Origin: a virus
Taxonomy: Duplodnaviria; Caudoviricetes
Reading direction: 5' to 3' (one strand)
IMG/VR virus record: IMGVR_UViG_3300021400_000134
Length of the DNA: 64,000 nucleotides
Below the pieces are notes generated by a model that searched no databases, was not told the DNA's origin, and saw only the letters and a program-made list of their open reading frames with translations. This document shows positions 7,678-24,217 of the stretch, one piece after another. Both the position numbers and the translations under genes were made by a program. Each line of letters opens with the position of its first letter. Within the stretch, counting starts at the first letter, position 1.

Positions 7678-8121
7678 TTGGCGAAGATGATAAATAAGTG
7701 CAAAGGAATTGAAGACATGCGCTATTCAATATTGGATATGCTGGATAATGGCATGAGTATTGCCGAGGTTAAGGAAAAATTTAATAAGATTTTAGAAGAG
7801 GAACAATGCCGTAAGGAATTTATTGATACTGTTGCGGCAGCTGTTGAAAAACTTATCAAAACCATGTATTCAGATGTAGCTGACCTATATGATGAAGAGA
7901 CATTCCAGATGTTTGCGGATGCTGATGTTCTTGGGAAAGTGGAGTATGATGCCCAGGAGTTGCGGAAGCTGAAGTCTGCCGGATATGAGAAGGCAGCGCC
8001 TTGGGAAGTCAATGATGACTTTGGCCCTGGTCCCACTCTAAAGGTGACTAAGGCACCTATTAAGTCTACGGCCGCAAAGGATGATGATGATATTCTTAAG
8101 GTGTGGTCAGCGTCCTTGTAA
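7678..8121 (+). CDS. hypothetical protein
   Basis: 147-aa ORF behind a TGTTATAAT promoter. Confidence 0.65.
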   Translation: MAKMINKCKGIEDMRYSILDMLDNGMSIAEVKEKFNKILEEEQCRKEFIDTVAAAVEKLIKTMYSDVADLYDEETFQMFADADVLGKVEYDAQELRKLKSAGYEKAAPWEVNDDFGPGPTLKVTKAPIKSTAAKDDDDILKVWSASL

Positions 8122-8302
8122 AAAATTACGGAAAAGATTTTTTACAAACATCATAAAGAACTGGGAAGAATTAAGTTTATATGCTATCTTGTTTCTCCTG
8201 GTTTTATACAAAGATATTCGAAAGATTCGTGAGAGGCGTACAAACTCATAAATTTTTTTCATATAACCTCCCTTTACACATACACACTTTTTACCTTTAT
8301 AG

Positions 8303-8344
8303 AAAACTGGACTCTGGCTGTACGCCCTGGAGTCCAGTTTTTTT
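8303..8344. terminator. bidirectional terminator-like hairpin
   Basis: AAAACTGGACTC...GAGTCCAGTTTT. Confidence 0.65.
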
Positions 8345-8990
8345 ATTATATAAGGCCATATGCGGTTGCGCCAAGGGGGCAAACTTTGTGAAAATTTTCA
8401 CAAGCGGCCGGCCAGGAGGGAAGGTGCTATTAATAGCGATATGGGGTGGCATATGCGGGATTGTCGTGCCGAACGGTTTAATCGGGTTGCCGCAATTATA
8501 GTAATAACTTTCCACTATTGGAGCAGCATATGCAGAAAAAGTTTCAAATGCCGTTCGGTATAGATATATACCCCATTTTATTATATCATATTTTTTATAA
8601 AAAATCAATAATTATGGCAAAAATTGCGGTTTTTGTGTTATTTTGTGAGAAAAATTGATATTTTTTTTTAAAATTATAGCAAATTTTTGTGATTTTTGTC
8701 AAATTTTTTATAGAAAATTGATGCTTTTTGCGAGAAATTTATAAAAAAATTGGCGTTTTTTTAATATTATACCAAAATTTTTAATAATTTTGCCAGAAAA
8801 ATGCGATTTTTGCAAAAAATTTTTCATAATATGCGATTTTTGGTGCGATTAAAAAAGATTTTTACGGAAAATTTGTGAAAATTTTCACAAACCGTGCCGA
8901 CCGGCCGCCGAACTTTAGGGAAATCCCGCGCGCCATATGCGGCCCCGAGTTGCGAAAAAAAAGTTGCCATATGGCGTGCCGGCCGGAAAA

Positions 8991-9158
8991 CCGACCGTAG
9001 TCGGAGTTAGTCTCAACTAACTGACCGATGGTCAGAGTTAGTTAGCCTAAACTAACTGTTGCGTTTCCAACTAATTTGTGAAAGTTCAAACTTTCACAAA
9101 CTTGACTCCCTGAAAATTTTTCATTTTTTTGAAAACAAATTTGTGAATTTTCTCACAA
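8991..9158. promoter_or_regulatory. tandem array of different palindromic operator-like sites
   Basis: CCGAC-N4-GTCGG, GTTAG-N6-CTAAC x2, CTGACC-N3-GGTCAG, GTTG-N6-CAAC, TTGTGAA-N10-TTCACAA, TTGTGAA-N4-CTCACAA; the first six abut. Confidence 0.7.
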
Positions 9159-9391
9159 TAACGGGAAAAGCAAAAAAATTTTAAAATTTTTGAATTTTTT
9201 TCTTGACTTTTGCGGTGGCGTGTGGTATAATGAAAACGGCCTGGTTCGCTAGTAAGCGGGCCGCCAATTATAGCACGACTGGGGGTGCTTGTCAAGCACT
9301 TTTTTTGACAATTTTTTGCCATTTTCTGTTTAGTATTACTAAACTACCGGCAGTTAGTCAAGCCTAACTCTGGCTCAAAAAAAGAAGGCTT

Positions 9392-9784
9392 CTAGCCCTC
9401 CTTTTTAGCCCTGTGAGCGGTTAATGTCAGCGTGTAGTGCACGCCATTATCACCCACAAAGTCCACCGCACGCTCGGCGTTTACAACGCTCACAGAAGCA
9501 ATTCCAGCAGTGGCGCCAAGCGCATCAGCGACCGCCTTAATGACTGCCTGTTTGAACAAGTCCGCTTTGCGCTCCCTCGGCTTGGCGTTTCCGCTCACCT
9601 TGCGAGTACCTGTATTAGCGAGTTTGCGAGCGTTGCGCATCTGTTCCTTGGTTAAGTCCCAAGGCTTGGCAATTCCGCGGTCGGTATCGCGGTCATCCGC
9701 AATTAACTGTATTGCTTCCTCGCGTGTGCATTTCAGCGTGCGCATGTGATGCTGAATTAACTTTTCATCCAATAGTATCACCAC
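9392..9784 (-). CDS. hypothetical protein, paralog of 12694..13095
   Basis: Shared HM.TLKCTREEAIQLI.DD...LT.EQ...RERK.D..K...Y.LTLT.HRAKK. Confidence 0.75.
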   Translation of the reverse strand: MVILLDEKLIQHHMRTLKCTREEAIQLIADDRDTDRGIAKPWDLTKEQMRNARKLANTGTRKVSGNAKPRERKADLFKQAVIKAVADALGATAGIASVSVVNAERAVDFVGDNGVHYTLTLTAHRAKKEG

Positions 9785-9826
9785 CTTTCACAACGGATGA
9801 GGGAGAAAGGGCTTGCGCCCTTTCCC

Positions 9827-10171
9827 TTAAATCTTGGTGAAATACGCTTTGCCTTTCACCACCTCGCGGGAGACAAGAACATTGTCGCGCATCTTTTTAA
9901 TCAGCGCAGACACTTTCTGCCCACTCGCTTCTGCGAGTTCAGGAACGAGCGCCTGAATCTCACTGACAGTGTAGGACTTTCCGCCCTCCATTGCCTCGTA
10001 AATACGCTCAATCAGTTCAGCGTTTGCCACCTGCTTGGCAGTGGGCTTGGTGGACTTGCGCTCGTTCTTTTTAGCGAGCAGTTCAAGTTCGTGCAGGAGG
10101 AATTCCTTGTCTTCCTCATGAGCGTAGCCGAGAATGCGGTTGAAATAGTCACGTTTCGTCATTTTTTCCAT
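9827..10171 (-). CDS. small winged-helix protein, paralog 2
   Basis: TKRD...HELELLAKKN...KPTAKQVANAEL...SGQKVSALIKKM...VVKGKAYF. Confidence 0.8.
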   Translation of the reverse strand: MEKMTKRDYFNRILGYAHEEDKEFLLHELELLAKKNERKSTKPTAKQVANAELIERIYEAMEGGKSYTVSEIQALVPELAEASGQKVSALIKKMRDNVLVSREVVKGKAYFTKI

Positions 10172-10511
10172 AGTTTAATCACCTTTACCTTTCTGTATAA
10201 ATATTACCATGGTTTTGAAGATAAGTCAAGCACTTTTTTTCATCTGCGGAAGATTTTTTTTGTGCCCTTCCCTTACCTTACAAATACATTATACAGAGTT
10301 GCCTGTACAAAAAACATGCCAACCCCGTGTGAAAAAATTCACAAGCGGCGGTTTAGTACCACTAAACTTTTGGGAGAAAAAAATTGGCAAAAAATTGTCA
10401 CACTTTTCTCTTGACAAATGCTGGCGGGTGTGCTATACTAAAATTTCGGCCCGCTGCACACGTTTGCGGGCCGGCCTGGTTAGTCAAGTATAACTTTCAA
10501 AAAATCGCAAT

Positions 10512-10560
10512 AAAAAACTGCCACCCCAAGGAGGAGGAGGGTGGACAGTTCGAGCGTCTT
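10512..10560 (-). ncRNA. terminator-like hairpin with anti-SD loop (U)CCUCCUCCUU, copy 1
   Basis: AACTGTCCACCC TCCTCCTCCTTG GGGTGGCAGTT followed by a U-run. Confidence 0.55.
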
Positions 10561-10783
10561 AAACTACAAATTCGGCATTAGTGAGAATACTGAGGACTGT
10601 TAAGGCGTTAAGGAGTTCGTCTCTCTGTGCGATGCGATAATCAGTTGCCTGCACAGCATTTAATTCCATTTCCCACATTTCATTATACAGAGAATTAACA
10701 ATTTCAATTGCTTTATCTAAAACTTCGCAATCTTCATCAGTAACATCAACGGGATAGCGGACAATCTTTTTAACAATTTCCAT
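10559..10783 (-). CDS. hypothetical protein (cassette)
   Basis: Own promoter and AGAGAGGTG SD. Confidence 0.7.
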   Translation of the reverse strand: MEIVKKIVRYPVDVTDEDCEVLDKAIEIVNSLYNEMWEMELNAVQATDYRIAQRDELLNALTVLSILTNAEFVV

Positions 10784-10846
10784 TTTATTCACCTCTCTTT
10801 ACATTATTAGTATAGCAGATTGGAAAGGGGTTGTCAACCCCTTTAT

Positions 10847-10981
10847 TTATTTTTTTTCTATCGAATTGATTACATCTGCTTTGTCTTTCATGATTTCCCA
10901 GAATTTTTCTTCTGCATCTTTTTTATTTTTTGCTTTAATTTTTATTACGCCCTCGTAAGTTACATAGAATTCTTTTTCCAT
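10847..10981 (-). CDS. 44-aa hypothetical protein (not in ORF track)
   Basis: MEKEFYVTYEGVIKIKAKNKKDAEEKFWE...; own promoter and SD. Confidence 0.65.
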   Translation of the reverse strand: MEKEFYVTYEGVIKIKAKNKKDAEEKFWEIMKDKADVINSIEKK

Positions 10982-11054
10982 TTTGTTTACCTCTCTCTTA
11001 CAGTATTAGTGTATCAGATTAGAGGGGATTTGTCAACCCCCTCATCTGATTTTT

Positions 11055-11294
11055 TTAGAAATCTTCGTTAGCGTAATTCTTGACGATTTTTGCAAACAGT
11101 TTCACTGTGTCAATGTAGGTTTCATGGTCGCTTGCCATGTCCTCGTAGTCTTCAAGTTCTGCGCCGTCGGGAACTCCGCACATGAGCCAAGGTTCCATTG
11201 CATCTTCATCATTCATGTAGCGAATTGCGTAGTCCATAGCCTGCAGGACTTCAACTCTGCGACCGATTACTTCTCTTTTAAACTGTTCTGTCAT
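11055..11294 (-). CDS. acidic hypothetical protein (cassette)
   Basis: Own promoter and SD; W...GVPDGA motif. Confidence 0.7.
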   Translation of the reverse strand: MTEQFKREVIGRRVEVLQAMDYAIRYMNDEDAMEPWLMCGVPDGAELEDYEDMASDHETYIDTVKLFAKIVKNYANEDF

Positions 11295-11328
11295 TTTTCT
11301 TACCTCTCTTTACACTATTATAGTATCA

Positions 11329-11493
11329 CTACTGGCACTCGTTGTCAAGTGCTTTTTTCATTTTTCTTCTAAAATCTTTGCGGGTCTTGCGCTTCCAAAA
11401 GTGCCAAGCCTTGCGATTATTTTCAACCCAACAGGCATACTTTCTATCAAACTTATCCTCAAAGGTCATCTTCTTGTGAATGTTGTTTTTCAT
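11329..11493 (-). CDS. 54-aa basic, Trp-containing peptide (not in ORF track)
   Basis: MKNNIHKKMTFEDKFDRKYACWVENNRKAWHFWKRKTRK...; AAGGAGG SD. Confidence 0.6.
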   Translation of the reverse strand: MKNNIHKKMTFEDKFDRKYACWVENNRKAWHFWKRKTRKDFRRKMKKALDNECQ

Positions 11494-11752
11494 GATAACC
11501 CTCCTTCATTATTATAATACATCTTATTTTTAAAAAAGTCAATAAAAATTTTTGCAAAAATTTTTGCGTCAAAAAAAATTTTTTGGTATAATAAAAATGT
11601 AAGGTGAAGAACCTTACATTCCATTCCATTTTAAACTTTTCTAGAAAGCCGGTGATGAGCCGGCTTTCGCCTTTCCCGGGGCGGCACTTGTGAATGTTTT
11701 ATTTTTCACAAAGTCGTATTCAAAAAAAATAGGGGATTTTATCCCCTATTTT

Positions 11753-12079
11753 TTACAGTGCCTTGAAGATGGTAGACTTGCCGTCCTTCACCTTTTCGAC
11801 AGCGCCTGCTTCAACCAACTGCTTAAGCAGAGCGGAAGCCTTCTGAACGCTGATGCCGACAGCCTTTCCTGCATCAGTAGCAGTCAGACCTTCACCGAGG
11901 GCTTCAAGCAGAGCGCCCTTGATGGTTTCATTTTCCTTCTGAGTCTTTGTCAGACCCTTTCTCGGAGAACCTTTGCGGACAGACTTGAGGGCTCTTTCAA
12001 CGAGGAAGTTGAACTGTTCTTCTGTCAGAGAATCGTAAGCAATAGCGTTAATCTGTTCTGTAATAGTTGTCTTTGTCAT
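11753..12079 (-). CDS. small winged-helix protein, paralog 3
   Basis: GLTATDAGKAVGISVQKASALLKQLVEAGAVEKVKDGKSTIF is a typical wHTH. Confidence 0.8.
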   Translation of the reverse strand: MTKTTITEQINAIAYDSLTEEQFNFLVERALKSVRKGSPRKGLTKTQKENETIKGALLEALGEGLTATDAGKAVGISVQKASALLKQLVEAGAVEKVKDGKSTIFKAL

Positions 12080-12693
12080 GTGTAATCACCTTTTACCTTT
12101 CTTTTTACACTTTTATTTTAGCATCTCTTGGATGCTTTGTCAAGAGTTTTTTTAACTTTTTTTAAGTTTTTTCTCTTGAGGAATCAGCCGAAGGTTTGTG
12201 GATGTGTTGTAAGTTTTTGGCACCCTCGCCCCTTACATTTTAAGTATAGCACCTTCGTTGTAGTTTGTCAAGGGATTTCTTTTAAATTGTTAAGAAATTT
12301 TTTCGGGGGTCTCTCTTGGTCTCTCTCCGTCCCTTGCAAGTATAGTATAGCAGATGGTAGAAGCCTTGTCAAGACTTTTTTTAACTTTTTTTCAAGTTTT
12401 TTAAGTGCTGACTTGGCGGGGCTTCCTTACCCTTGCTACACCCATAGTATAGCAGATGGAGCGGATGCTGTCAAGGGTTTTTGGGAAAATTTTTTAAGAA
12501 ATTTTTTTAAATTTTTCTCTTGACAAAAATTGCGCGGGGTGGTATAATGGAAAATTCCGGCCGTGCGGACAGTGCACGGCCGGCCCAGTTAGTCAAGCCT
12601 AATTTTAAAAATTTTTCGGCACGCCTGGCCCCGTGTGCAGTAGAGACAACGGGTTCAGGTGGGTCATTCCGCAAGCACAAAAAAGGCTTACTG

Positions 12694-13095
12694 TCAAGCC
12701 TTTTTTGCACGATGTTTTGTGAGTTTTACGGTGTAGTCATTTGCGTGATAGGTGAAACTGATTTCCGCTTCGTTTTTAAGAGTCAGATTTTCAATTTCGC
12801 CATTCAGATTGAAGCCTTCAAGGACAACCCGAAGCCAATCAAACACAACCTTTTTGTCTTCGTCGACCTTACGCTCACGATTTACAGAACGCTTTTCAGG
12901 AGGCTTGCGGTCGGCTTTTGTCAGACCTCTTACCATCTTTTTCTGCTCAGCAGTCAGAGCAAACAATTCAGTATTTCCATGGTCGATTTCATCATCACAA
13001 TTGATAAGGTCGATTGCTTCCTCTCTTGAGCATTTCAGAGATTTCATGTGCTTCTGAATGAGTTCTTCAAGTTCTTTTTCTGTACGTCTTGCCAT
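12694..13095 (-). CDS. hypothetical protein, paralog of 9392..9784; TGA stop
   Basis: Paralogy; own promoter; AGAGAGGTG SD. Confidence 0.75.
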   Translation of the reverse strand: MARRTEKELEELIQKHMKSLKCSREEAIDLINCDDEIDHGNTELFALTAEQKKMVRGLTKADRKPPEKRSVNRERKVDEDKKVVFDWLRVVLEGFNLNGEIENLTLKNEAEISFTYHANDYTVKLTKHRAKKA

Positions 13096-13168
13096 TGAGT
13101 ACACCTCTCTTTCTGTAATAATAATAGCATGGGGAAGGGGTTTTGTCAACCCCTTCCGCTATCTTTTT

Positions 13169-13516
13169 TTAAATCTTTGTGAAGTAAGCAGCTCCCTTCA
13201 CAACTTCTCTCGATACGAGAACATTATCACGCATCTTTTTAACGAGAGCGGAAACCTTCTGACCGCTTACATCGGCAAGTGCAGGAATCAGAGCCTGAAT
13301 TTCAGCGATACGATAGGACTTGCCTGTTTCCATCGCTTCATAGATTTCTTCAATCAGTTCAGCATTGGCAACCTGCTTTGCAGACGGCTTGTCAGAGCGT
13401 CTTTCATTCTTTTTTGCGAGCAACTCGAGTTCATGGTCGATGAATGCGATTTCCGCTTCATCAGTCAGATGGGTACGAATCTGTTCGAACATTTCACGCT
13501 TTGTAATCTTTGTCAT
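13169..13516 (-). CDS. small winged-helix protein, paralog 4
   Basis: Close paralog of 9827..10171. Confidence 0.8.
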   Translation of the reverse strand: MTKITKREMFEQIRTHLTDEAEIAFIDHELELLAKKNERRSDKPSAKQVANAELIEEIYEAMETGKSYRIAEIQALIPALADVSGQKVSALVKKMRDNVLVSREVVKGAAYFTKI

Positions 13517-14090
13517 AATTAATCACCTTTTACCTTTCTTACAATTTAAGTATACACCTTTTTGGTTATGTTGTCAAGAGGTTTTTTCAGATTTTTTTAA
13601 GGATTTCTTTTTTCTCATCCCCTCTTTACATTCTAATTATAGCAGACTTGCTATACTTTGTCAAGAGGTTTTTCTACATTTTTTTCTGAGGCTACGTATC
13701 TATCGCTTCTAGTTGCTCAATACGGTTCATCCTCTTGACATTATTAGTATAGCAGATGTTGGAAGATTTGTCAACACCTTTTTTAGAAATTTTTAAGAAA
13801 TTTTTTTCTATTTCTTTTTTATTTCTATAATAATTATAAACCTTTTTTATAAAAAAGTCAACAAAAATCTTTGCTAATTTTTTCACAAACGCCGCCCGGG
13901 ATTTCCGCAAAAATCACACAATTTCACATAATTTTCTTCTTGACTTTTGGTCGTGGGTGTGGTATAATTTTCGGTCGTTAGCGGCAACTAACTATGGCTT
14001 AAAAATTTTTTATTTTTGCACAAAAAGTGTTGACAATCTTTTTCTTTTGGTGTATTATAATCTTGTAAGTTAAAGGAAGGTAAAAACACT

Positions 14091-14804
14091 ATGAATTTCT
14101 ACATGACTATTGACACAGAAACAACCAACTCACTTGATGATGCTCTTGTTTACGATTTGGGGCTTGCCATCCATGATGCGGAAGGTAATGTGTATCATAC
14201 TGAAAGTTTTGTTATCGCTGACATTTTCTTCAATGAAGAACTCATGAAAGTTGCGATTTTTGCAAATAAGATTCCGCAGTATCGTGCAGACATTGAGAAT
14301 GGAATACGCACGCTGACTACATTCAGAAAGGCACGCACTGAAGTGCTGAAACTAATGAAGCGCTACAATGTTAAGGCGGTCATTGCGCACAATGCATTCT
14401 TTGACTTCAAGTCATTAAATACAACGCTCCGCTTTCTGACTAATTCAAAATATCGCTTCTTCTTTCCATGGGGTACTGTAATTTGGGACAGTCTGCGCAT
14501 GGCTAAAACTACTTTTGGAAAGGATGCCAATTACACAAAGTGGTGTGAAGAGCATGAATACCTTACCAACAAGTACCGCAAGCCGAAAATGACTGCCGAG
14601 GTTCTGTATCGCTACATCACCAAGAATGAAACCTTCATTGAAGAGCACGCAGGACTTGCAGATGTGCTGATTGAAAAGGATTTGACAGCCTACTTTCTCA
14701 AGCATGACCATGCAGGAATGAAGAAATGTCTCTTTAATCCGAAGAAGGAAGAAGATGTTAAAACCATGCTTGAATGGTGGACAGAAAGTTTGCTCTGTGA
14801 GTAA
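14091..14804 (+). CDS. DEDDh 3'-5' exonuclease
   Basis: IDTETT (ExoI), AHNAFFD (ExoII), EEHAGLADV (ExoIII); promoter TTGACA at 14030. Confidence 0.85.
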   Translation: MNFYMTIDTETTNSLDDALVYDLGLAIHDAEGNVYHTESFVIADIFFNEELMKVAIFANKIPQYRADIENGIRTLTTFRKARTEVLKLMKRYNVKAVIAHNAFFDFKSLNTTLRFLTNSKYRFFFPWGTVIWDSLRMAKTTFGKDANYTKWCEEHEYLTNKYRKPKMTAEVLYRYITKNETFIEEHAGLADVLIEKDLTAYFLKHDHAGMKKCLFNPKKEEDVKTMLEWWTESLLCE

Positions 14805-14947
14805 ACTTTTTATTTAGTCTGACTAAACTTTCGGGATAAAAAAATTTCTTAAAAAAATTGCAAAAAATGCTTGACAAAATGCCGGGAGTGTGTTCTAATG
14901 AAAAAACTGGTCGTTGCGCCCGGCGACGGCCAGCCCGAAAAGTCAAC

Positions 14948-15000
14948 AAAAAAAGCCAATAGGCAAGGAGGAGGAACCCATTGGCTTGGAGCGGTTTTTA
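14948..15000 (-). ncRNA. terminator-like hairpin with anti-SD loop UCCUCCUCCUU, copy 2
   Basis: AAGCCAATGGGT TCCTCCTCCTT GCCTATTGGCTT followed by a U-run; directly 3' of the tRNA-like gene. Confidence 0.55.
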
Positions 15001-15003
15001 AAT

Positions 15004-15091
15004 TGAGGGCGACGGGACTCGAACCCGCATTATAGCGCGCATATCACATTCGGCACACTGACCGACGGCACTACCATTGTGCTACGCCCTC
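15004..15091 (-). tRNA. tRNA-like gene with long variable arm and aberrant anticodon arm (most like degenerate tRNA-Leu CAG)
   Basis: Acceptor GAGGGCG/CGCCCTC + A73; D-arm GCAC-AATGGTA-GTGC; T-arm GCGGG-TTCGAGT-CCCGT; anticodon arm TCGG-TCAGTGTG-CCGA is non-canonical; no encoded CCA. Confidence 0.75.
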
Positions 15092-15123
15092 ACAAGGGGG
15101 GAGCCTTTCGGCTCCTCCTGCGC

Positions 15124-15456
15124 TTACTCGGCGATTCCGAAGGTTGCCTTTACCTTACCCTTGGCTTCAGTCACCTTGGTGAACTTGCCACTGCGGTTGA
15201 GGATTGCGCTTGCCTTCTGATTGGAGATGCCGAAGGCTTCTTCAACCTGTCCGCAAGTTACAGCGCCATTTTCAGCGATGTAAGCGACAATCTTATCAGC
15301 GAGTTCAGCGTTGGCAACCTGTGCCTTAGTCGGCTTATTGGACTTGTAGCCCTTGCGCTTGTCGAGCAGTTCGAGTTCATGTCCGCAGAAACCTACGATT
15401 TCAGCGTCATTGGAGCAGACTTCCATAATCTTGTTCAGCATTTCTCTCTTTGTCAT
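15124..15456 (-). CDS. small winged-helix protein, paralog 5
   Basis: N-terminus like paralogs 2 and 4, C-terminus like paralog 1. Confidence 0.8.
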   Translation of the reverse strand: MTKREMLNKIMEVCSNDAEIVGFCGHELELLDKRKGYKSNKPTKAQVANAELADKIVAYIAENGAVTCGQVEEAFGISNQKASAILNRSGKFTKVTEAKGKVKATFGIAE

Positions 15457-15554
15457 AATCATCACCTTTTACCTTTCTTATCTCTTTGTGATTTTAGTAT
15501 ACAACATTTCAGCCATGTTGTCAAGCCCTTTTTCAAGGTTTTTTTATTTTTTTA

Positions 15555-15633
15555 CTCCAATTCTTTTCACTCTTGGAAACCAAGCAGATTGACAGTCGCT
15601 ACACAGTAACAGTCGTCTTTCTTTCCTTTGGTA
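15555..15633 (-). ncRNA. candidate small RNA (promoter, no ORF)
   Basis: TTGACA-N16-TATAAT upstream; ACCAA/TTGGT and TCCAA/TTGGA stems. Confidence 0.4.
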
Positions 15634-15687
15634 ATTTTATTATAGCACTTTTCAGAAGATTGTCAAGTACTTTTTTTAAGAAATTTT

Positions 15688-15838
15688 TGAAACTTCCTCT
15701 TCAAGTTTCAGAGCGGGGTTGCGCACCCACCGCACAAGTCAACAGGGTTCATTTGATATTTTAGCAACTCCGAGCCTGCCCTGTAAGGCTTAACGCCACT
15801 GAGTGATGCGGGTTTGAAGGGTTTTCCTTCCCTTTACA
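15688..15838 (-). ncRNA. candidate structured ncRNA (about 150 nt)
   Basis: Own promoter; stems CCGCA/TGCGG, ACAGGG/CCCTGT, GGC-GTTAA-GCC, GGGT-GCGCA-ACCC, TGAAACTT/AAGTTTCA; no SD-led ORF. Confidence 0.55.
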
Positions 15839-15899
15839 CTTACATTATAGCATCTTTTAGCTATCTGTCAAGTGTTTTTTTAACTTTTTTTATTTTTTT

Positions 15900-16061
15900 T
15901 GTAAGGAGCAAACAGCGGTACTCACATGACCATTGATGCAGTAGGGACTACACTCACCACCTCACACCATGCGAGTTAACTAGTATTTACCATGGTTCTG
16001 TTGGTGTCTCTTGCTAGAGCGCTGACATGATACCATTGAGTACCCTTGTTTGCCTCTTACA
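15900..16061 (-). ncRNA. candidate structured ncRNA (162 nt) with long 5'/3' closing stem
   Basis: Promoter TTGACA(16095-16090)-N17-TATACT; TGTAAG..GCAAACA..GGTACTCA pairs with TGAGTACC..TGTTTGC..CTTACA; internal stems CTCT/AGAG, CACCA/TGGTG, ACCATG/CATGGT, GTAG/CTAC. Confidence 0.7.
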
Positions 16062-16115
16062 TCTTTAGTATAGCAGACTTTTGAGAGCCTGTCAATACTT
16101 TTTTTTAAATTTTTT

Positions 16116-16237
16116 CGGTCGCGCGACCTATCTTCTCGGTTCGATTATACTGCTGAACCTGCGGCGATTAACCGTTACTTTGAAGACAGCCTTTGCCAAG
16201 GAGCGGTTTTTTAACGAGGCCTGATGCCTTCCTCACA
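16116..16237 (-). ncRNA. candidate structured ncRNA with three-way junction
   Basis: Own promoter; CTGTCTTC/GAAGATAG encloses CGGT/GCCG and GGTTC/GAACC; contains TTAAAAAACCGCTCC. Confidence 0.55.
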
Positions 16238-16300
16238 CTCTTATTATAGCAGATACCGCTGTAATGTCAAGTGTTTTTTTATTTTTTTTAGCAGTTTTTT

Positions 16301-16349
16301 TAGTAAGTTTTCGGTTAACCCGCTTACCAAGAGTGCTTCATCTCTTACA
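16301..16349 (-). ncRNA. candidate two-hairpin small RNA
   Basis: Own promoter; AAGAG/CTCTT and GGTAAG-CGG/CCG-CTTACT stems. Confidence 0.4.
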
Positions 16350-16443
16350 AGTATAGTATAACAGATTTTAGAATAATGTCAACACTTTTTTTAAAAGTTT
16401 TTAAGTTATTTTTTTCACAAAGTTCGGCGCCCGGGCGGGAAAC

Positions 16444-17115
16444 TCACCGAGCAAAGGCGAGTTTCCGCATTTTCTTGTGCTGTGCCATACATTTCACAGT
16501 AATTGCAATTTCAATCAGCACATCGTCAAGACCCTGATGTTCTTCTGTAAAATCGTTATCTCCTGTAATGTAGCGGTAGAGAATTTCTGCTGTCTTGCGG
16601 ACTTTGCCGTTTTTGCAGAGATAGCCATTTTCTTCACAGAATTTAATGTATGTTTTCTGCTTGCAGATGGTATCTTCTGCCATAACCATTGAGTCATACA
16701 GCGGGATGCCATACGGCAGAAAATAACGGTATTTTGATTTTGTAGTGTAGCGCATTGTAGTAGTTAATGACCGATAGTCAAAGCGGGCATTATGTGCAAT
16801 GATTGCCTTTACATTGTATTTATCACAAAGTGCTTTCACGATTTTTTTAGCGGTGAATACGCTAATCATTTTACGCTCTCCGCTTTTCAGTGCCTGCTCA
16901 TACTTTGGTAACTTGCTTGCATAGTAGGCGGATTTCATCAGTGCTTTTTCTTTAGCGTAAATATCATAGATAACATAACTTGCTTTTTCGTAAACCTTCC
17001 CCCGCTTGTCATGGATTGCAAGACCGAGGTCATACGCAAGCGGGCAATCCAAGCCATTTGCAGTTTCAGTGTCAATTGTCATGTAATAAGTAATACGCTT
17101 GTCAATCTTTGTCAT
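16444..17115 (-). CDS. DEDDh 3'-5' exonuclease, paralog of 14091..14804; TGA stop
   Basis: IDTETA, AHNARFD, EEHQGLDDV. Confidence 0.85.
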   Translation of the reverse strand: MTKIDKRITYYMTIDTETANGLDCPLAYDLGLAIHDKRGKVYEKASYVIYDIYAKEKALMKSAYYASKLPKYEQALKSGERKMISVFTAKKIVKALCDKYNVKAIIAHNARFDYRSLTTTMRYTTKSKYRYFLPYGIPLYDSMVMAEDTICKQKTYIKFCEENGYLCKNGKVRKTAEILYRYITGDNDFTEEHQGLDDVLIEIAITVKCMAQHKKMRKLAFAR

Positions 17116-17325
17116 AGGGTTTCCTCTCTTTACAACTATTATTATACACCTATTGGAGATAATGTCAAGCGTCAGTTTCGGGATTTTTTAATTTTTTTCA
17201 AAAAATTTTTTTATTTTTCCTCTTGACATCGGCGGGCAAACGTGGTATAATTTTGGACCGTTAGCGGTGGCTAACTTTGCGGTTGCCGGTAAAACCGTCC
17301 GGCAGACCGCCGAGCGCAAAAAAAA

Positions 17326-17733
17326 TCAACCCCACAGTTCAGCAGGATTGAGTGCTACACCTTTCCAAGAGTTGCGGATTGGTTCAGAATCATCGACAAG
17401 AACCGCATTCACAGAGTTTTTGAGGTTCTTATTGTGACCGTAGGCTCTGTAAATTCTCTTTGTGAGAGAAGGGAAGAACCTGTCGAGCCAAGCGTTTTTC
17501 TGTTCTTCAACATTCTTGCAGTATTCAGCAGTTGCGCCGAGCGGTGTCATGCTGAGGATGCGGATTTCATACTTGTCAGTGGGGAAGAAATTCAGAAGTT
17601 CTTTTTCTGTAATCATTGGCTTGCATTCAAGGAAGATTGTTTCATCGGAGGCTCTCAGTCTCGGAAGCCAATTTTCAATGCCGTACAGGTCAGCGATTGT
17701 TCCATCCATGTCAAGGTAAACTGTCTTTTTCAT
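17326..17733 (-). CDS. HAD-superfamily phosphatase (5'-nucleotidase-like); TGA stop
   Basis: VYLDMDGTIAD motif I; ILS motif II; LVDD motif IV. Confidence 0.75.
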   Translation of the reverse strand: MKKTVYLDMDGTIADLYGIENWLPRLRASDETIFLECKPMITEKELLNFFPTDKYEIRILSMTPLGATAEYCKNVEEQKNAWLDRFFPSLTKRIYRAYGHNKNLKNSVNAVLVDDSEPIRNSWKGVALNPAELWG

Positions 17734-17820
17734 AATTCTTTATTCCTCTCTTTACACTATTATAATACACTGCTTGTTTCTGTTTGTCAATACCTTTTTG
17801 TAAAAAAAAGAAAAGATTTT

Positions 17821-17970
17821 TTAATCTTTTCTTTTAACTGTTATAATGTTTTCTTTGTTTTCAAAGATGATTTCTTCCAGTTCTTTAATCTTGTATTTAA
17901 GATTGCGGATTTCGTCGAGCGCATCTTCGTAATTCTGTCTGTAAAGTTCCGTGTAATTAATTTCTGCCAT
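17821..17970 (-). CDS. 49-aa coiled-coil peptide (not in ORF track)
   Basis: MAEINYTELYRQNYEDALDEIRNLKYKIKELEE...; GAGGTG SD. Confidence 0.6.
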   Translation of the reverse strand: MAEINYTELYRQNYEDALDEIRNLKYKIKELEEIIFENKENIITVKRKD

Positions 17971-18004
17971 ACTCTTCACCTCTCAATTTTATTTTACCAT
18001 TTTT

Positions 18005-18490
18005 TTAATAACTTGTCAATGATGTTTTTACATGATGCAGGTTTTCGTAATGTCTAACCGCACAGTTCAAGCGGTGGCACCATGCCCGCATGCTTTCCGC
18101 GTTTTCATTGTAAACATTTACCGCAAACTCTGTCGCTACTTTCTCTATTGGTTGATTGTAGTATGCTTGATACCTTGCGGAGCCTGTCAGACCTCTTAGC
18201 AGTTTTTCACTTGCTTGCTCTTCCCACTCATCTTCATTGAAGTAGTCAACCGTGTAGTGATGACCGAGTTCATGCAGTACAGACAAGGCAAACAGATTTT
18301 CTTTTGTCAGCGTAAAGTTGAAGGTATCTTTCAGATACTTTGCCCATTCTCTGTTGGCGTCATTATTTTCAAACAGAGTGATGCAGATTTCTTTTGTATC
18401 AGGTTCATAGCAGAAATAGTCATACATGCGCACAGTGCAATCATAACCGATGAACTTTTCAACTATCTTGGTCAAACTGTTCTTTTTCAT
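18005..18490 (-). CDS. HExxH metallopeptidase-like protein
   Basis: VLHELGHH...PIEKVATEFA. Confidence 0.65.
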   Translation of the reverse strand: MKKNSLTKIVEKFIGYDCTVRMYDYFCYEPDTKEICITLFENNDANREWAKYLKDTFNFTLTKENLFALSVLHELGHHYTVDYFNEDEWEEQASEKLLRGLTGSARYQAYYNQPIEKVATEFAVNVYNENAESMRAWCHRLNCAVRHYENLHHVKTSLTSY

Positions 18491-18675
18491 AGGACACCTC
18501 ACTTTTACATTATTATTATAACATAGATTTTTAAAAAGTCAACACTTACGGGAGAAAAATTGCGGTTAAATTTTTTTAATTTTTTGCTTGACAAATTGCT
18601 GGTTGTGTGTTATAGTGGAAAAACGTCGCGCCTGGGCCGTGGGCGCGACGCCGAAAAGTCAAGAAAAAAACCGCC

Positions 18676-18819
18676 TTAACCCAGCGGCGGCCAGGGGTGC
18701 GGATTGGTGGTGATGAACGTGTCATCCCAACCGAGGCTCTCCATCTCCTCGTAAGCGTCAGCGAATGTGGCGAATGTGCCCCAGTGGAAACCATCTTCAG
18801 TGAACAGGTAGTACTTCAT
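18676..18819 (-). CDS. 47-aa acidic/aromatic peptide (not in ORF track)
   Basis: MKYYLFTEDGFHWGTFATFADAYEEMESLGWDD...; AAGGAG SD; own promoter. Confidence 0.6.
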   Translation of the reverse strand: MKYYLFTEDGFHWGTFATFADAYEEMESLGWDDTFITTNPHPWPPLG

Positions 18820-18905
18820 TTTTTTATCTCCTTTTCTTTACACTCTTATTATAGCAGATTTAGTTTTTTTGTCAATACTTTTGAAAAAATTTTTTTAGCA
18901 GATTG

Positions 18906-19346
18906 TCAAGCCCTTTTTAACTTGGCAATCTGCTTTGTGTTCATCAGCGTGGCGTTCTCAAGTTTAATCTGAACTTCCCGACCGTCAATCTGAATGTCAC
19001 CCTGTACCCAGAAGGGAACGTTATCCTTTTCCCATGTCTGACCGTAGTATTCAGTAACCAGCTTTTCGAAGATTTCACCCTTGTTGTACTTGTCAGCAAT
19101 CAGCATGTCAGCGGAGCCAAGACAGACAGGATGTTTCTTCATCAACTGCTTTTTCAGTTTGAGTTTTGGACGGAAGCGAAGATTTTCACCCTGATTTCTG
19201 CTTGCCTGTTCTACTGACAAGAAGCGTGGCATGATTTCCGCAACCTCTACCATGTAGAGTTTCTTTTCAAGTGTGAAGCCGAGGATGTAAGAATCAGCGG
19301 CTGAATTGTTTCTGTAGTGCTTAATCATTGTTCTCTTGGTTGTCAT
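18906..19346 (-). CDS. hypothetical protein, possible PD-(D/E)XK-like fold; TGA stop
   Basis: NKGEIFE...GDIQIDGREVQIK. Confidence 0.6.
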   Translation of the reverse strand: MTTKRTMIKHYRNNSAADSYILGFTLEKKLYMVEVAEIMPRFLSVEQASRNQGENLRFRPKLKLKKQLMKKHPVCLGSADMLIADKYNKGEIFEKLVTEYYGQTWEKDNVPFWVQGDIQIDGREVQIKLENATLMNTKQIAKLKRA

Positions 19347-19593
19347 TTTGTTTCCCTCTTTTCTTTACACTCTTATTATAGCAGATTGCCGGATGAAGTC
19401 AACACCTTTTTTTAAACTTTTTTATTTTTTTGCTCTTGGTCGATGCATTACTGAAAAAATTTACATTTTGGGAGAAAAATTTTCATGCAATTTTCATCAT
19501 TTTTTGCTTGACAAAATCCGGGCCGGTGTAGTACAATAAATTTCGCGCCGGCTCGGTAGTGGGCGGCGCGCCAAAAGTCAATAAAAAAATGCC

Positions 19594-19770
19594 CTACTTA
19601 CCGCAGAGCATTTCCCACATCTCGCGGGTATCGCAGGAGTAGGAGACCCACCCTTCACCATCCTCGAGCACGTCGGCGTACTTGTAGCCACCGTCGACAT
19701 ACCAGATAGCGCGATTTTCGCAAGTAGCGAGAACATCGCAGTAAGTAGCAATCAGTTCCATGTGTTTCAT
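19594..19770 (-). CDS. 58-aa hypothetical protein (not in ORF track)
   Basis: MKHMELIATYCDVLATCENRAIWYVDGG...; GAGGAGGTG SD; own promoter. Confidence 0.6.
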   Translation of the reverse strand: MKHMELIATYCDVLATCENRAIWYVDGGYKYADVLEDGEGWVSYSCDTREMWEMLCGK

Positions 19771-19831
19771 TTGAACACCTCCTCTTTACAATTATAGTAT
19801 AACATGATTCTTTAGAATGTCAACACTTTTT

Positions 19832-20029
19832 TTAAAATTCTTCAAGCAAATAATACAGATTTTCTTCATTTATTTTTTTGGCAAATTGTGCGGTAAACCA
19901 AACATCGGTTTCTTCATCGTAATAAAAGTGAGGAATGTAGCAAATAGTATCTTTATCACCATACCATTCACAATTATTGAAAAAATCTTCAGAAATTGTG
20001 TAGAAGTCTTCGTTAATTTTTGTAATCAT
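19832..20029 (-). CDS. acidic/aromatic small protein
   Basis: Own promoter and SD; D/E/Y/F-rich. Confidence 0.65.
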   Translation of the reverse strand: MITKINEDFYTISEDFFNNCEWYGDKDTICYIPHFYYDEETDVWFTAQFAKKINEENLYYLLEEF

Positions 20030-20072
20030 TTTTTACACCTCTCTTTACATTATTATTATATCCTACTGGTTA

Positions 20073-21321
20073 TTATTTGTCAAGGGTTTCGGGATACTTT
20101 TTTACTTTTTCAAAGAATAATTCTCTCAGCAGATCGCAAATTTCTTCTTCGGTGACTCCTTTGGCGTGATACTTAGAAAAATAATAGCAAGTGAGTCCGC
20201 TCATGAGGATCTCATACTGTTTTGCTGTAAACTCCATTTTATCTGTTTCCTTTCACAATTTTATTTAATTCTAACAGGGTATTTTTATAGTATGCCATGC
20301 ACTTTTCATTAATACCCTTTTTAATTTCTTTTACAAGCAGTTTATCAATTAATTCATCGGCATTTTCTTTGTCTCTATTTTTCAGCAGATAATCAAGTTC
20401 TGTCATCTTTACCACCCCTTTCTGCAAGCATTTTTCTGTGCCTGCTTCTTTTTGTTTGGTACTACTTTATGTCCGAGTTTCCGCAGATTGCGGTTGAGTT
20501 CTTCATTGCGGAAATTGTAGAGTGTTTCTGTTCCATTAGCGTTTTTGTATTTCTTCATCTCTTGGTTCTCCTTACAATTATAGTATAACAGAAAAAAGGT
20601 ATTTGTCAATATCTTTTTTCTAATTTTTCTGTGTAAATGTCAGAATCAGGGAACCAATCAAGTCGTCTTGTAATGCTATCAATTTCATCTGCGGTGATGT
20701 GTCTAAAATCACGATCGCAATTTAACAGAAGGGCTTTATTTCCATCCGTACGCCGAAGTTCTTCTGAAATATTCTCAAGTACAGTGTTTACTGTAACGAA
20801 TGCTTCTTTTTCTTCTTCTGTTAATGAAAAGGTTATTTTCTTTGTTATTTCCATTTTATCACCTTTCTTACTCGTTGTCAAACATTAATTTAATACTGAA
20901 GAATGCAAGGCATCCGCTCAGCGCAAGAATGAAACTCATCATACTTTACCATACCTTTCTAACACATGGAGATTGAAACCTACAACCGCAACCGCAAGCA
21001 GAATAATTGGCAATGCTTCAATTGAGAAGTCATTAATTGAGACTAACATAATTGTTAATACCATTGTGATAATTTCAAGTGCCGTCTGAATGGCAGGTCT
21101 TAATGTTCTGTTCATTTTTTATACCTCTCTTTACATTATTATTATAACATAATTATTTTTATTGTCAACATTTAATTCTTAAGAATTGTGAGAAGTTCAT
21201 TCTTATTCACCTTAACCAAGCGGAACAGACCCCGCAAAGTCAAATTGTTAATAACCTGAGTTTCTCCAGTAGAGACATTAGTAATCTTTACTGTGTATAA
21301 CTGAATCTTTTTCTTTGCCAT
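20073..21321 (-). CDS. run of small cassette genes (20073-20237, 20239-20406, 20409-20558, 20606-20854, membrane peptide 20939-21115, 21172-21321)
   Basis: ORF track plus manual translation; each has an SD and several have their own promoter. Confidence 0.55.
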
Positions 21322-21549
21322 GTTCTGAACCTCCTTACATTATTATTATAACACAACGCCGGAAATTGTCAATAGTTTCGGGCAAAAAGTTTCAGGAAAT
21401 TTTAAAAAATTTTTAAAAAATTTCAATTTTCCTCTTGACTTCTGCGGCCCGGCATGCTATAATTTTTCGACCCGTTAGCGGTGACTAACCAAAGTCCGCA
21501 CTTGTGAAAGTTTAAACATTCACAAGTTTCTCCAAAAGAAAAGAGGTTC

Positions 21550-21777
21550 TCACCTCTCTCCGTACAGTGTCAGCACTGTTTCATCTCCGATGAAGTAGCA
21601 AGTTACTGCGTCGCCTTCTTCAAGGTCGTCTGCTTCAACCTCATACAATTCACCGTCAAGATTCACAATGTAATAATCATTGTATTCAGCGCCACCTTCA
21701 ATAGTTTTTTCAACTACATAACCGCTCTGTTTCTGCGCACCGAGAAGAGCAAGAACCGCAAGTATTACTTTAATCAT
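21550..21777 (-). CDS. small protein with N-terminal hydrophobic or signal segment; TGA stop
   Basis: MIKVILAVLALLGAQ followed by an acidic beta-rich domain. Confidence 0.65.
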   Translation of the reverse strand: MIKVILAVLALLGAQKQSGYVVEKTIEGGAEYNDYYIVNLDGELYEVEADDLEEGDAVTCYFIGDETVLTLYGER

Positions 21778-21909
21778 TGTATCACCTCTCTTTACAATTC
21801 TATTATAACATCTCTACTGGATTTGTCAACACTTTTTTAAACTTTTTTATTTTTTTAGAGTTTGTGAATGTTTTATTTTTCACAAGTTCCCCAAGAAAAA
21901 AACAGGTTT

Positions 21910-22125
21910 TTAAGCCTGCCATTCAGCGAGAGCCTGACGGTAGAGTTCAGCGGACTCTTCCATCTCTTCTTCTTCGTACCATTCGATTTCACGGGTAAGC
22001 CATTCTTCGAAGCCGAAGTCTTCATCTTCTTCATCAAACGCTCCCTCGTATCCTTCCATCCAGTATTCCATCCAGATGCTGAGCATTTTTTCTTCATGTT
22101 CGTTGAGTTTTGCGAAGTCTTTCAT
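21910..22125 (-). CDS. very acidic small protein (DNA-mimic candidate)
   Basis: 25 of 71 residues are D/E; 5 Trp. Confidence 0.7.
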   Translation of the reverse strand: MKDFAKLNEHEEKMLSIWMEYWMEGYEGAFDEEDEDFGFEEWLTREIEWYEEEEMEESAELYRQALAEWQA

Positions 22126-22269
22126 TTTTCTTTCCTCTTTCTTTTTACACTTTTATTATAGCATACTATTCCGGTCTGTCAATACTTTTTAATTAATTTT
22201 TTAATTAAATTTATTCCCGCAAAAACTTTGTGAAAGTTCAAACTTTCACAAGTTGCCCCTAAAAAAAAC

Positions 22270-24060: not shown

Positions 24061-24217
24061 CTATATTAGTAAACAAACTCCTAAAGCGAACATAGCTCCA
24101 TATATTACCATTAAGGTAGCCTTGACCCACTTACGATACCGCAACCCAAATCCGTACCGATAGACATGAGCTACTCTAAACAAGCTCACTACCACCATGA
24201 TGATACCAAGCATCTCA
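24061..24217 (-). CDS. small two-TM membrane protein
   Basis: Hydrophobic ORF coupled to the upstream gene; exact start uncertain. Confidence 0.5.

Follow-up and report, generated by a model that had tools for sequence, protein, structure and literature searches.

A portable terminator hairpin with a conserved anti-Shine-Dalgarno loop closes early transcription units in a TGA-recoded rumen phage lineage

Results

Organization of the locus

The window, which here means the entire 64-kb stretch of DNA from an uncultured rumen phage that was analyzed, carries two minus-strand hairpins, H1 (10512-10556) and H2 (14948-14993), each of which lies at the end of an array of strong early promoters of the sigma-70 type (Table 1). 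H1 follows a short early ORF, while H2 follows a tRNA-like gene that is co-transcribed with an early ORF belonging to a small paralog family. In the latter array five more promoters are stacked upstream of the one listed for this ORF, extending as far as 16382 and uninterrupted by any terminator. Both hairpins are the first terminator encountered past their multi-promoter arrays, with none located between the promoter stacks and H1 or H2. Because the arrays that they close consist of consensus promoters, the RNAs containing the hairpins are expected to be abundant. Downstream of each there is a second GC-rich hairpin and a consensus promoter of opposite orientation that faces back into the hairpin.

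Table 1. Features at and around the H1 and H2 hairpins
Feature	Coordinates	Strand	Remarks
Counter-oriented promoter TTGACA-17-TATACT with TG	10411-10439	+	Faces back through GC hairpin and H1
Second GC-rich hairpin downstream of H1	10448-10472	-	Conserved downstream module; at 5' end of counter-transcript
H1 U-tail T6	10512-10517	-	Intrinsic terminator tail
H1 hairpin	10518-10548	-	5' arm 10548-10539 (one bulged U), loop UCCUCCUCCUUG 10538-10527, 3' arm 10526-10518
H1 5' flank CGCTCGAA	10549-10556	-	Cassette motif CGCT(C/T)(G/C)A(A/G); 6 nt past stop codon of upstream ORF
Last early ORF (74 aa) of H1-ending array	10559-10783	-	Own promoter 10837-10809
Counter-oriented promoter TTGACA-17-TCTAAT with TG	14871-14899	+	Faces H2; antisense to tRNA-like gene; same module as that of H1
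Second GC-rich hairpin downstream of H2	14905-14935	-	
H2 U-tail T7	14948-14954	-	
H2 hairpin	14955-14985	-	5' arm 14985-14976, loop UCCUCCUCCUU 14975-14965, 3' arm 14964-14955; two G.U pairs
H2 5' flank CGCTCCAA	14986-14993	-	10 nt past tRNA-like gene
tRNA-like gene directly upstream of H2	15003-15092	-	ARAGORN Leu(CAG); Rfam tRNA 46.3 bits; aberrant anticodon arm
Early ORF (110 aa), small paralog family	15124-15456	-	Co-transcribed with tRNA-like gene and H2; promoter 15524-15496
Flank-like CGCTCCTT	16198-16205	-	Follows A-run inside another early RNA; no anti-SD hairpin

Structure of the two hairpins

A first-pass annotation of this DNA had described two 3' hairpins on the minus strand that have a loop in common and stems that differ, and both are confirmed at the positions it gave. 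Their common layout is CGCTC(G/C)AA, a 10-nt arm, the loop UCCUCCUCCUU(G), the second arm and a U-tail, with a spacing of exactly 10 nt between flank and loop in both; read along the minus strand, the letters of the H1 loop at 10538-10527 are TCCTCCTCCTTG. The two stems bear no relation to each other (CTG-T-CCACCC/GGGTGG-CAG in H1 versus GCCAATGGGT/GCCTATTGGC in H2) and have 9-10 pairs each, so that the length of about 12 bp originally assigned to them is reached (12-13 pairs) only if the A.U extension into the tail is counted. Folding with RNAfold gives -20.1 kcal/mol (z -2.3) for H1 and -17.1 kcal/mol (z -3.3) for H2, and the covariance model R1 scores them at 78.3 and 68.1 bits, respectively. 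The only two occurrences of the 11-mer TCCTCCTCCTT in the window lie in the loops of H1 and H2, against an expectation of 0.01, and none of 100 shuffles reached two.

H1 and H2 are certainly terminators as well, as each is a stable GC-containing hairpin followed by a U-tract (T6 and T7) at the end of a transcription unit. Analysis of ~50 predicted terminators in positions 1-26000 of the window indicated that only these two have a pyrimidine loop (at least 8 nt, at least 80%), with the remainder having either short loops or longer ones that are not pyrimidine-rich. The flank had also been said to recur in an RNA at 16116-16237. A similar sequence does occur there, preceded by an A-run as in H2 (~14 of 15 nt alike), but the hairpin does not follow it, and the covariance model gives this site 9.4 bits (E = 3).

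Conservation of the cassette in relatives

We identified 21 distinct copies of the cassette in four related IMG/VR phage contigs and in ~20 rumen metagenome contigs. These bear out the conservation of the loop in relatives, with the core CUCCUCCU invariant in all 21 copies and surrounded by at least 15 stem variants. The first covariation alignment comprised nine copies, taken from the window and the four IMG/VR relatives, and none of 500 shuffles was as good; the same picture of a conserved loop and a covarying stem is seen in 19 distinct copies that include those from the rumen metagenome contigs. Compensatory (double) changes are present in 8 of the 11 stem pairs, with 94.9% of cells paired in the nine-copy alignment (94.7-94.9% overall). 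Matches to the covariance model that have altered loops (UACUCCUCCUUG, UUCUCCUCCUUG and UCCUCCUCCUG) retain CUCCUCCU, and when IMG/VR was scanned for flank and tail irrespective of the loop, the true hairpins always had the canonical loop. These comparisons support selection on the loop that is independent of the stem. They further suggest that the loop may regulate translation, because relatives keep the loop while the stem changes freely.

The folded molecule is the early-strand RNA. In all 19 aligned copies the terminator-strand RNA, which bears 39 G.U pairs, is more stable than the opposite strand and ends in a U-tail of T5-T8. The contexts of the cassette vary and include ORFs, tRNAs and tRNA-like RNAs, with about half of the copies directly following one of the latter two. 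For example, one copy (L264) follows tRNA-Ala, and H2, together with about half of the relatives' copies, lies 1-18 nt past a tRNA or tRNA-like 3' end. A counter-oriented consensus promoter and GC hairpin are conserved beside nearly every copy. No copy is present in 24 phage relatives that are more distant, and none was found in bacterial genomes; as the cassette is missing from all of the more distant relatives, it is dispensable for this phage type. H1 and H2 are described here as two instances of a portable 3'-end cassette that belongs to a SPO1-like, TGA-recoded rumen phage lineage.

A different situation is found in one close relative, G004, which has a single copy within the first 20 kb and last 16 kb of its contig. 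Its stem is homologous to that of H2, yet both the canonical flank and the canonical loop are lost, and in their place are a private flank and the different loop UUACCUCUCUU, a swap that is represented by this one sequence. The complement of the G004 loop matches 10-12 nt of many early-gene ribosome sites of the family.

Complementarity to ribosome-binding sites

CCUCCUU is the anti-Shine-Dalgarno (anti-SD) core of 16S rRNA. The loop, an exposed C/U tract of 11-12 nt that is under selection, is the perfect complement of a double Shine-Dalgarno, AGGAGGAG. Early and late genes were previously noted to differ in their SD sequences, and the split holds in our counts, with GGAGG preceding 4 of 32 early versus 9 of 21 late genes and GAGAGG preceding 10 of 32 versus none of 21. 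GGTGA is likewise seen at 7 of 32 early versus 1 of 21 late genes by our own rough gene calls, and the early genes mostly avoid GGAGG. TGA is recoded in the late genes of this phage. The best complements of the loop in the window, perfect over at least 8 nt, are late-gene ribosome sites at 31171, 38270, 50039, 60745 and 61086. Predicted loop-leader duplexes are modestly stronger for late than for early genes (-10.4 versus -8.5 kcal/mol, p = 0.025, with rough gene calls). The loop has no unique target, as any strong SD fits, and SD pairing does not account for the conserved flank CGCUC(G/C)AA.

Discussion

A possible role in translation

We tentatively propose, as a reading that is quite plausible but still short of probable, that the terminator hairpins double as anti-ribosome-site seeds akin to the C-rich loops of RNAIII and the Rsa RNAs or to the "cuckoo" RNAs. 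Early transcripts ending at H1 or H2 would each carry the loop, as would a 3' trailer of ~55-60 nt that RNase P/Z processing of the tRNA-like RNA would free from the H2 transcript. The loop would pair with purine-rich ribosome-binding sites and block 30S binding, and the resulting duplex with the mRNA may become exposed to RNase III. The best phage targets would be the GGAGG-type leaders of late structural genes, and mRNAs of a Firmicute host would qualify as well. The stem would be a scaffold for a loop that can be exchanged like cargo, for which G004 may be an example. Additionally, the counter-oriented promoter would yield a perfectly complementary antisense RNA that neutralizes the hairpin RNA or sets its timing. 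An RNA-based translational takeover had been suggested in the first-pass annotation. Those elements of it that concern a selected loop, an early-strand RNA and complements at late sites agree with our findings, while a global takeover of the host is unsupported and purely conjectural.

The G004 loop complicates this proposal. As it complements early sites, it is a misfit with a simple scheme in which early messages are spared and late or host messages are blocked. Furthermore, the early sites are unchanged and yet the loops of the window clade and of G004 fit different target classes, so there is no covariation between loop and target. An extended version, in which the AGGAGG loop holds back late or host translation during early infection, the G004 loop shuts off early genes and the counter-oriented promoters supply antisense antidotes that time the release, is one we regard as doubtful.

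Several other explanations of the conserved loop have to be weighed against pairing with ribosome sites. A binding site for a protein, composed of loop and flank, is unlikely in our estimation, though it would accommodate the flank, which plays no part in SD pairing and is both conserved and, in G004, lost jointly with the loop as expected of one composite site. The loops of the window clade and G004 are also both pyrimidine-rich despite their different sequences, as might suit an RNA-binding protein of host or phage with a preference for C/U-rich single strands (cold-shock, KH or S1-type), a phage RNA chaperone or a termination or RNA-stability factor. However, the letter-for-letter 8-nt core, together with the 10-12-nt complement of early sites in G004, resembles nucleic-acid pairing more than degenerate recognition of pyrimidines. 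It is quite unlikely that the hairpins are strong terminators only, with a loop and flank that are themselves functionless and are held in common through recent spread of the cassette by recombination within one lineage. The GC stem and U-tail are those of a textbook terminator, the cassette shifts between contexts and its distribution is narrow, but at least 15 compensated stem variants surround an unchanged loop core, and drift or gene conversion that homogenized the loops should have homogenized the stems too. A 12-nt loop is, moreover, poor terminator design, and the other predicted terminators of the region lack long pyrimidine-rich loops.

The counter-oriented consensus promoter and GC hairpin after nearly every copy suggest that loop and flank might serve in sense-antisense pairing among the copies, with the counter-transcript loop AAGGAGGAGGA "kissing" the terminator loop of any one of them in the manner of plasmid antisense control, and the decay or termination of early arrays thereby being coupled. 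The predicted counter-transcripts are the only RNAs complementary to flank and loop together, and G004, with one copy in the stretches examined, has a private version of both. We nevertheless judge this explanation very unlikely; a cis-antisense pair is complementary with any loop sequence, which leaves the SD-complementarity of two independent versions unexplained. Mimicry of the 16S rRNA 3' tail, with the loop acting as a decoy for an anti-SD-recognizing factor such as a host toxin, defense nuclease or maturation factor, would make sense of the anti-SD core CCUCCUU and of a G004 loop that loosely resembles the 16S tail. In a variant of this idea the loop soaks up SD-like regulatory elements, for example the internal SD behind the RF2 frameshift; this would be relevant to a phage whose late genes read UGA as sense. 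The decoy is entirely speculative, has no known target and is highly improbable. Finally, we consider it extremely improbable that the opposite strand is the functional one, with the loop being a true ribosome-binding site, perhaps of a tiny ORF, or a ribosome decoy on the counter-transcript. The plus-strand loops do read AAGGAGGAGGA, that of G004 is an exact early-type site, and those of stem types A and B are followed 4-7 nt downstream by GTG or TTG. Against this, a start codon within 3-12 nt is lacking in 7 of 19 copies, the length of the ORF is not conserved, every G.U pair favors the strand that carries the U-tail and in all 19 copies the opposite strand gives the poorer fold.

Comparison with known systems

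The proposed anti-ribosome-site pairing has a close parallel in the cuckoo RNAs of Alphaproteobacteria (CcsR/RSs0680 and alpha-r14/NfeR1), in which exposed C-rich loops with the motif CCUCCUCCC are established to pair with the SD (PMC4615179). As in those RNAs, several copies per genome have compensated, variable stems around one fixed anti-SD-like loop motif; the phage loop UCCUCCUCCUU(G) has 8 of the 9 motif letters, and the 8-mer CCUCCUCC is common to both loops (PMC4615179). The cuckoo RNAs, however, are stand-alone sRNAs with 2-4 adjacent anti-SD hairpins and a separate terminator, whereas the single phage hairpin is itself the terminator of an mRNA or tRNA-like transcript, its motif ends in UU rather than C and the host of the phage is of Firmicute type. 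Membership in the cuckoo family was rejected, as there is one anti-SD hairpin per unit and the loop of the second GC-rich hairpin is unrelated. The closest Rfam family is ar14 (RF02344), which had no match in the window and gave sub-threshold scores of 32.2 and 24.7 bits in the relatives' loci; these fall far short of the gathering score (58.8), and homology is therefore rejected. In Staphylococcus aureus, unpaired C-rich loops of RNAIII and the Rsa RNAs pair with the SD and block formation of the initiation complex (PMC2790875). The phage loop, predicted to be unpaired and C-rich, recalls these Firmicute hairpin loops (RNAIII and the RsaE/RoxS class), but has UCCU repeats in place of UCCC, is phage-encoded, is located where early transcripts end (3') and has targets that are only proposed.

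The position of H2 also recalls tRNA trailers. The E. coli 3'ETS-leuZ, an Hfq-dependent sRNA sponge, comprises a tRNA trailer and operon terminator that is freed by tRNA processing. H2 is similarly placed 3' of a tRNA-like gene (15003-15092), with its flank starting at 14993 and the terminator included. Unlike the phage element, 3'ETS-leuZ, which is named in 10.1101/2021.04.25.441314, has no anti-SD loop, and H1 and other copies follow ORFs instead of tRNAs. The PeSL cassettes of T4-like phages are likewise modular, shuffling regulatory cassettes of early regions, but are promoter and stem-loop junctions thought to promote recombination and lack a conserved anti-SD loop. In phage T4 the nuclease RegB and the repressor protein RegA target Shine-Dalgarno regions and silence a temporal class of messages. 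The complementarity of the G004 loop to early-gene ribosome sites is reminiscent of these, with the phage agent proposed here being an RNA loop and not a protein. In a lambda nut site a small hairpin that recruits an antiterminator is preceded by a boxA-like CGCUCUUA. The flank CGCUC(G/C)AA agrees with boxA in 5-6 of 8 letters. We discarded a nut-type site, as the hairpin abuts the flank and the U-tract follows directly, and a nut site is not itself a terminator.

Significance

Anti-SD-loop base-pairing RNAs are already known from bacteria. Our literature search on the motif and on phage small RNAs with an anti-SD found neither a phage-encoded anti-SD-loop RNA nor a seed within the loop of a terminator that ends early transcripts. 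Should the regulatory idea fail, there is still a clean case of a terminator cassette, with a conserved loop and variable stem, that moves from one early transcription unit to another. Reporters offer a direct test of the idea, given that the loop has been swapped naturally in G004 and that early and late genes use two dialects of ribosome site. If exchangeable seeds do exist, they would be an RNA-only counterpart of T4 RegB and RegA, and in a TGA-recoded phage late messages might stay silent until suppressor tRNA is available. If true, a virulent phage would control classes of messages by the type of their ribosome sites via an RNA module of ~55 nt, a simple and portable translational switch that would constitute a new layer of phage temporal control.

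Two terminator hairpins display one loop on unrelated stems

The minus-strand terminator hairpins H1 and H2 share a common architecture in which an A-rich run is followed by the flank CGCTC(G/C)AA, a 10-nt arm, the loop TCCTCCTCCTT(G), a second arm of 9-10 nt and a tail of T6 or T7, with a flank-to-loop spacing of 10 nt in both. RNAfold predicts a single hairpin with an unpaired loop for H1 (-20.1 kcal/mol, z -2.3) and for H2 (-17.1 kcal/mol, z -3.3). The first-pass annotation had described an identical loop on different stems, and this description holds throughout the 64-kb window: the arms are unrelated, with a bulged U in H1 and two G.U pairs and no bulge in H2, and the loop 11-mer occurs twice, only in these two hairpins, where 0.01 occurrences are expected. 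A census of window positions 1-26000 found a long pyrimidine loop in only 2 of ~50 predicted terminators, namely H1 and H2. A longer helix, in which CGC of the flank would pair with GCG further downstream, was rejected: it is present in H1 but not conserved among copies, and the GCG partner would lie beyond the termination point.

Genomic setting of the hairpins

The window derives from an uncultured phage. Its early region (8-24 kb, minus strand) contains dozens of perfect TTGACA-N16/17-TATAAT promoters. Late genes occupy the plus strand from 25 kb and are open only when TGA is read through, with ORFs of up to ~2860 aa; the early gene 13095-12694 has TGA as its stop. The capsid-region protein is 50% identical to that of Phage Phass-1 and 38% identical to those of large Enterococcus phages. 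No match in the phage collection was obtained for the window at the nucleotide level or by tblastn with one late ORF, and Pfam gave no matches to ten neighbouring proteins.

H2 ends a unit of promoter, 110-aa ORF and tRNA-like gene, upstream of which five more consensus promoters are stacked as far as 16382; no terminator is predicted among them. A 74-aa ORF has its stop codon 6 nt before H1, the first terminator downstream of promoters at 11542, 11348, 11036 and 10837. Transcription from several strong promoters therefore runs into each of H1 and H2. Both are followed by a GC-rich second hairpin and an opposite-strand consensus promoter (the counter-promoter) directed back through the terminator. 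Past H1 there is a regulatory stretch and then a minus-strand early-family paralog; a plus-strand ORF (9797-10414, 205 aa) was rejected as a convergent gene at this place, where the true gene is the minus-strand paralog and the ORF is spurious. Past H2 there is a real plus-strand gene (14091-14804), which has a promoter, a ribosome site and a terminator of its own and a homologue of 77% identity in the related phage contig G001.

Several early promoters carry their -35 TTGACA in a hairpin loop built from the end of the preceding unit (10824-10844, 11334-11353, 12125-12146 and 13133-13157), so that terminator-like stems overlap the next promoter. Additionally, a plus-strand promoter, GC hairpin and terminator at 12520-12720 constitute a candidate stand-alone small RNA, which shares the counter-promoter module type of H1 and H2 but lacks the anti-Shine-Dalgarno (aSD) hairpin.

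Features of the aSD cassette and its surroundings (window coordinates unless a locus, L, on a relative or metagenome contig is given)
Feature	Coordinates	Strand	Remarks
H1	10512-10556	minus	terminator hairpin
H2	14948-14993	minus	terminator hairpin
H2 unit	promoter 15524-15496; 110-aa ORF 15456-15124; tRNA-like gene 15092-15003	minus	
tRNA-like gene	15003-15092	minus	only tRNA call in window; Rfam tRNA 46.3 bits
AGGAGGAG	15112-15119	minus	H2's own transcript, between 110-aa ORF and tRNA-like gene
Early-family paralog gene	10171-9827	minus	TTGACT-17-TAATAT promoter; family-type AAAGGTAAAGGTGATTA ribosome site; small early protein family
Candidate small RNA	perfect promoter 12520-12548; GC hairpin 12557-12583; two-way terminator ~12693-12720	+	terminator ~165 nt on
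Late ORF (example)	41428-49938	+	2836 aa; 24 in-frame TGA
~150-nt tRNA-like RNA, G001	L016:~1540-1690	minus	directly upstream of aSD hairpin
~150-nt tRNA-like RNA, G002	L012:~1330-1480	+	directly upstream of aSD hairpin
~150-nt tRNA-like RNA, G004	L223:~1330-1480	minus	directly upstream of hairpin at orthologous site
Tandem aSD terminator cassettes	L282:118-178 and 2154-2212		relative contig
Tandem aSD terminator cassettes	L266:797-857 and 1609-1667		relative contig
Tandem aSD terminator cassettes	L236:15117-15177 and 15515-15574		relative contig

Conservation and limits of the cassette

A scan of IMG/VR for the flank-plus-loop pattern recovered the element in the related phage contigs G001 (176 kb) and G002 (178 kb), in the fragment G003 and in a further fragment. 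Copies with the exact loop number exactly two in each of G001, G002 and G003, on one strand and 5.0-6.2 kb apart; the two copies in the window are 4.4 kb apart. In an alignment of 9 copies 12 loop columns are invariant, and the stem shows double changes in 8 of 11 pairs with 94.9% of cells paired, a level that shuffles and slid registers all fell well short of. When IMG/VR was scanned with flank and tail and the loop left unspecified, true hairpins appeared only with the canonical loop. One metagenome scan added ~20 more copies on rumen-type contigs. The first-pass annotation had proposed a covariance search in phages, and our model of the cassette (R1) does find added copies, comprising a third G002 copy with loop UACUCCUCCUUG and two copies of a new stem type with loop UCCUCCUCCUG on rumen-type metagenome contigs. 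The total is 21 distinct copies with at least 15 stem variants, throughout which the loop core CUCCUCCU is unchanged. All 19 aligned copies fold better as terminator-strand RNA than as the complement, and their stems contain 39 G.U pairs for which the opposite strand would have mismatches; it is therefore the RNA of the early strand that folds and is under selection. Three relative contigs have tandem cassettes 0.4-2 kb apart, each closing a single small ORF and each with its own counter-promoter.

About half of the copies lie 1-18 nt past a tRNA, a ~150-nt tRNA-like RNA or a tRNA minihelix, and the remaining half 0-6 nt past a stop codon. The tRNA-linked copies resemble 3'ETS-type trailer RNAs. 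The tRNA-like gene of the window combines good acceptor, D and T arms with an aberrant anticodon arm: 34 nt stand where anticodon arm and variable region normally take up 18 nt, and the best anticodon stem encloses a loop of 6 or 8 nt, UCAGUGUG. The ~150-nt RNAs of G001, G002 and G004 have tRNA-like ends (acceptor GGGAGA…/…TCTCCC; T-arm GGTTCGACTCC) without a normal anticodon arm and receive no ARAGORN call; at the equivalent place in G003 there is just an acceptor/T-arm minihelix. In Rfam, tRNA is the sole family reaching its gathering score, and membership of the aSD element in a known Rfam family was rejected.

The distribution of the element is restricted. Neither the exact loop nor an R1 match occurs in 24 further relatives with 50-93% identity in the capsid-region protein, and a C-rich pyrimidine loop is found in 0 of 561 terminators predicted for the early regions in a subset of eleven. 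A host or prophage origin was rejected: six matches in a scan of bacterial-genome contigs are all chance and lack a hairpin, and the element was not found in bacterial genomes of the species collection.

The closest relative without the canonical loop is G004 (93% identity in the capsid-region protein). At its orthologous site the stem is still of the H2 type and both tail and downstream module are retained, with a different loop, CCCCUUACCUCUCUU, and the CGCTC flank gone. The complement of this loop matches, over 10-12 nt, many early-gene ribosome sites (…AAGAGAGGTAAG…) in both G004 and the window. The G004 loop is a single sequence found only in G004 itself. Even so, that the loop was exchanged while the stem was kept, and is again complementary to ribosome sites, is hard to attribute to chance.

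Ribosome-site dialects and complements of the loop

A difference between early and late Shine-Dalgarno sequences had also been noted in the first-pass annotation, and the window leaders bear this out. There are two ribosome-site dialects: the sites of early genes (8000-24500, minus strand) are of the GAGAGG(T) or AAAGGTGA type, and those of late genes (24500-64000, plus strand) of the GGAGG (AAGGAGG) type. Early leaders are ~20 nt long (GTAAAGAGAGGT… or AAAGGTAAAAGGTGA…) and begin right at the transcription start. The perfect complements of the loop of at least 8 nt in the window are the late-gene ribosome sites at 31171, 38270, 50039, 60745 and 61086, plus AGGAGGAG in the H2 transcript. The duplexes predicted between loop and leader have a mean energy of -10.4 kcal/mol in late genes and of -8.5 kcal/mol in early ones (p = 0.025), a difference that is real and modest. 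AGGAGGAG, the sole such complement on the early strand of the window, lies partly within a GGAGCC-GAAA-GGCUCC hairpin; cis pairing with the loop was rejected because the complement is absent from the homologous G003 transcript.

Interpretation

It is firmly established that the element is a terminator with, in addition, sequence-specific selection on its loop, and we regard it as quite unlikely that it has no function beyond termination. Base pairing with ribosome-binding sites is the most economical account of an invariant, exposed double anti-SD, and to such pairing we tentatively assign somewhat less than an even chance. This reading is strengthened by G004, whose independent loop version is complementary to the second dialect of ribosome sites in these phages. 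Pairing does not explain the conserved flank, the differing target classes of the two loops or the specificity of a generic anti-SD. Loop and flank could together form a protein-binding site, which we consider unlikely. A GC hairpin and counter-promoter are kept beside nearly all copies, and that the loop serves as a recognition loop for counter-transcripts is improbable; more doubtful is a role as a decoy resembling the 16S tail. A small ORF or ribosome site on the opposite strand was rejected as the start codon is missing in 7 of 19 copies, ORF lengths are variable, and the G.U pairs and U-tail point to the terminator strand. Nothing beyond complementarity speaks for the RNA-based takeover of host translation put forward in the first-pass annotation.

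Pairing with ribosome-binding sites has precedents in bacteria. The C-rich loops of RNAIII and Rsa RNAs in Firmicutes act in this manner (PMC2790875), and the same mechanism has been proposed for cuckoo RNAs, whose differing stems carry a constant CCUCCUCCC loop (PMC4615179). The phage cassette is like the cuckoo RNAs in that stems vary and the loop is fixed, and the cuckoo-type ar14 is its nearest Rfam family, far below threshold, which indicates analogy and not membership. Our literature searches, covering the motif and phage small RNAs with anti-SD sequences, found no report of a phage-encoded anti-SD RNA. Judged from sequence, the element is a phage terminator cassette that displays a putative anti-ribosome-site loop.
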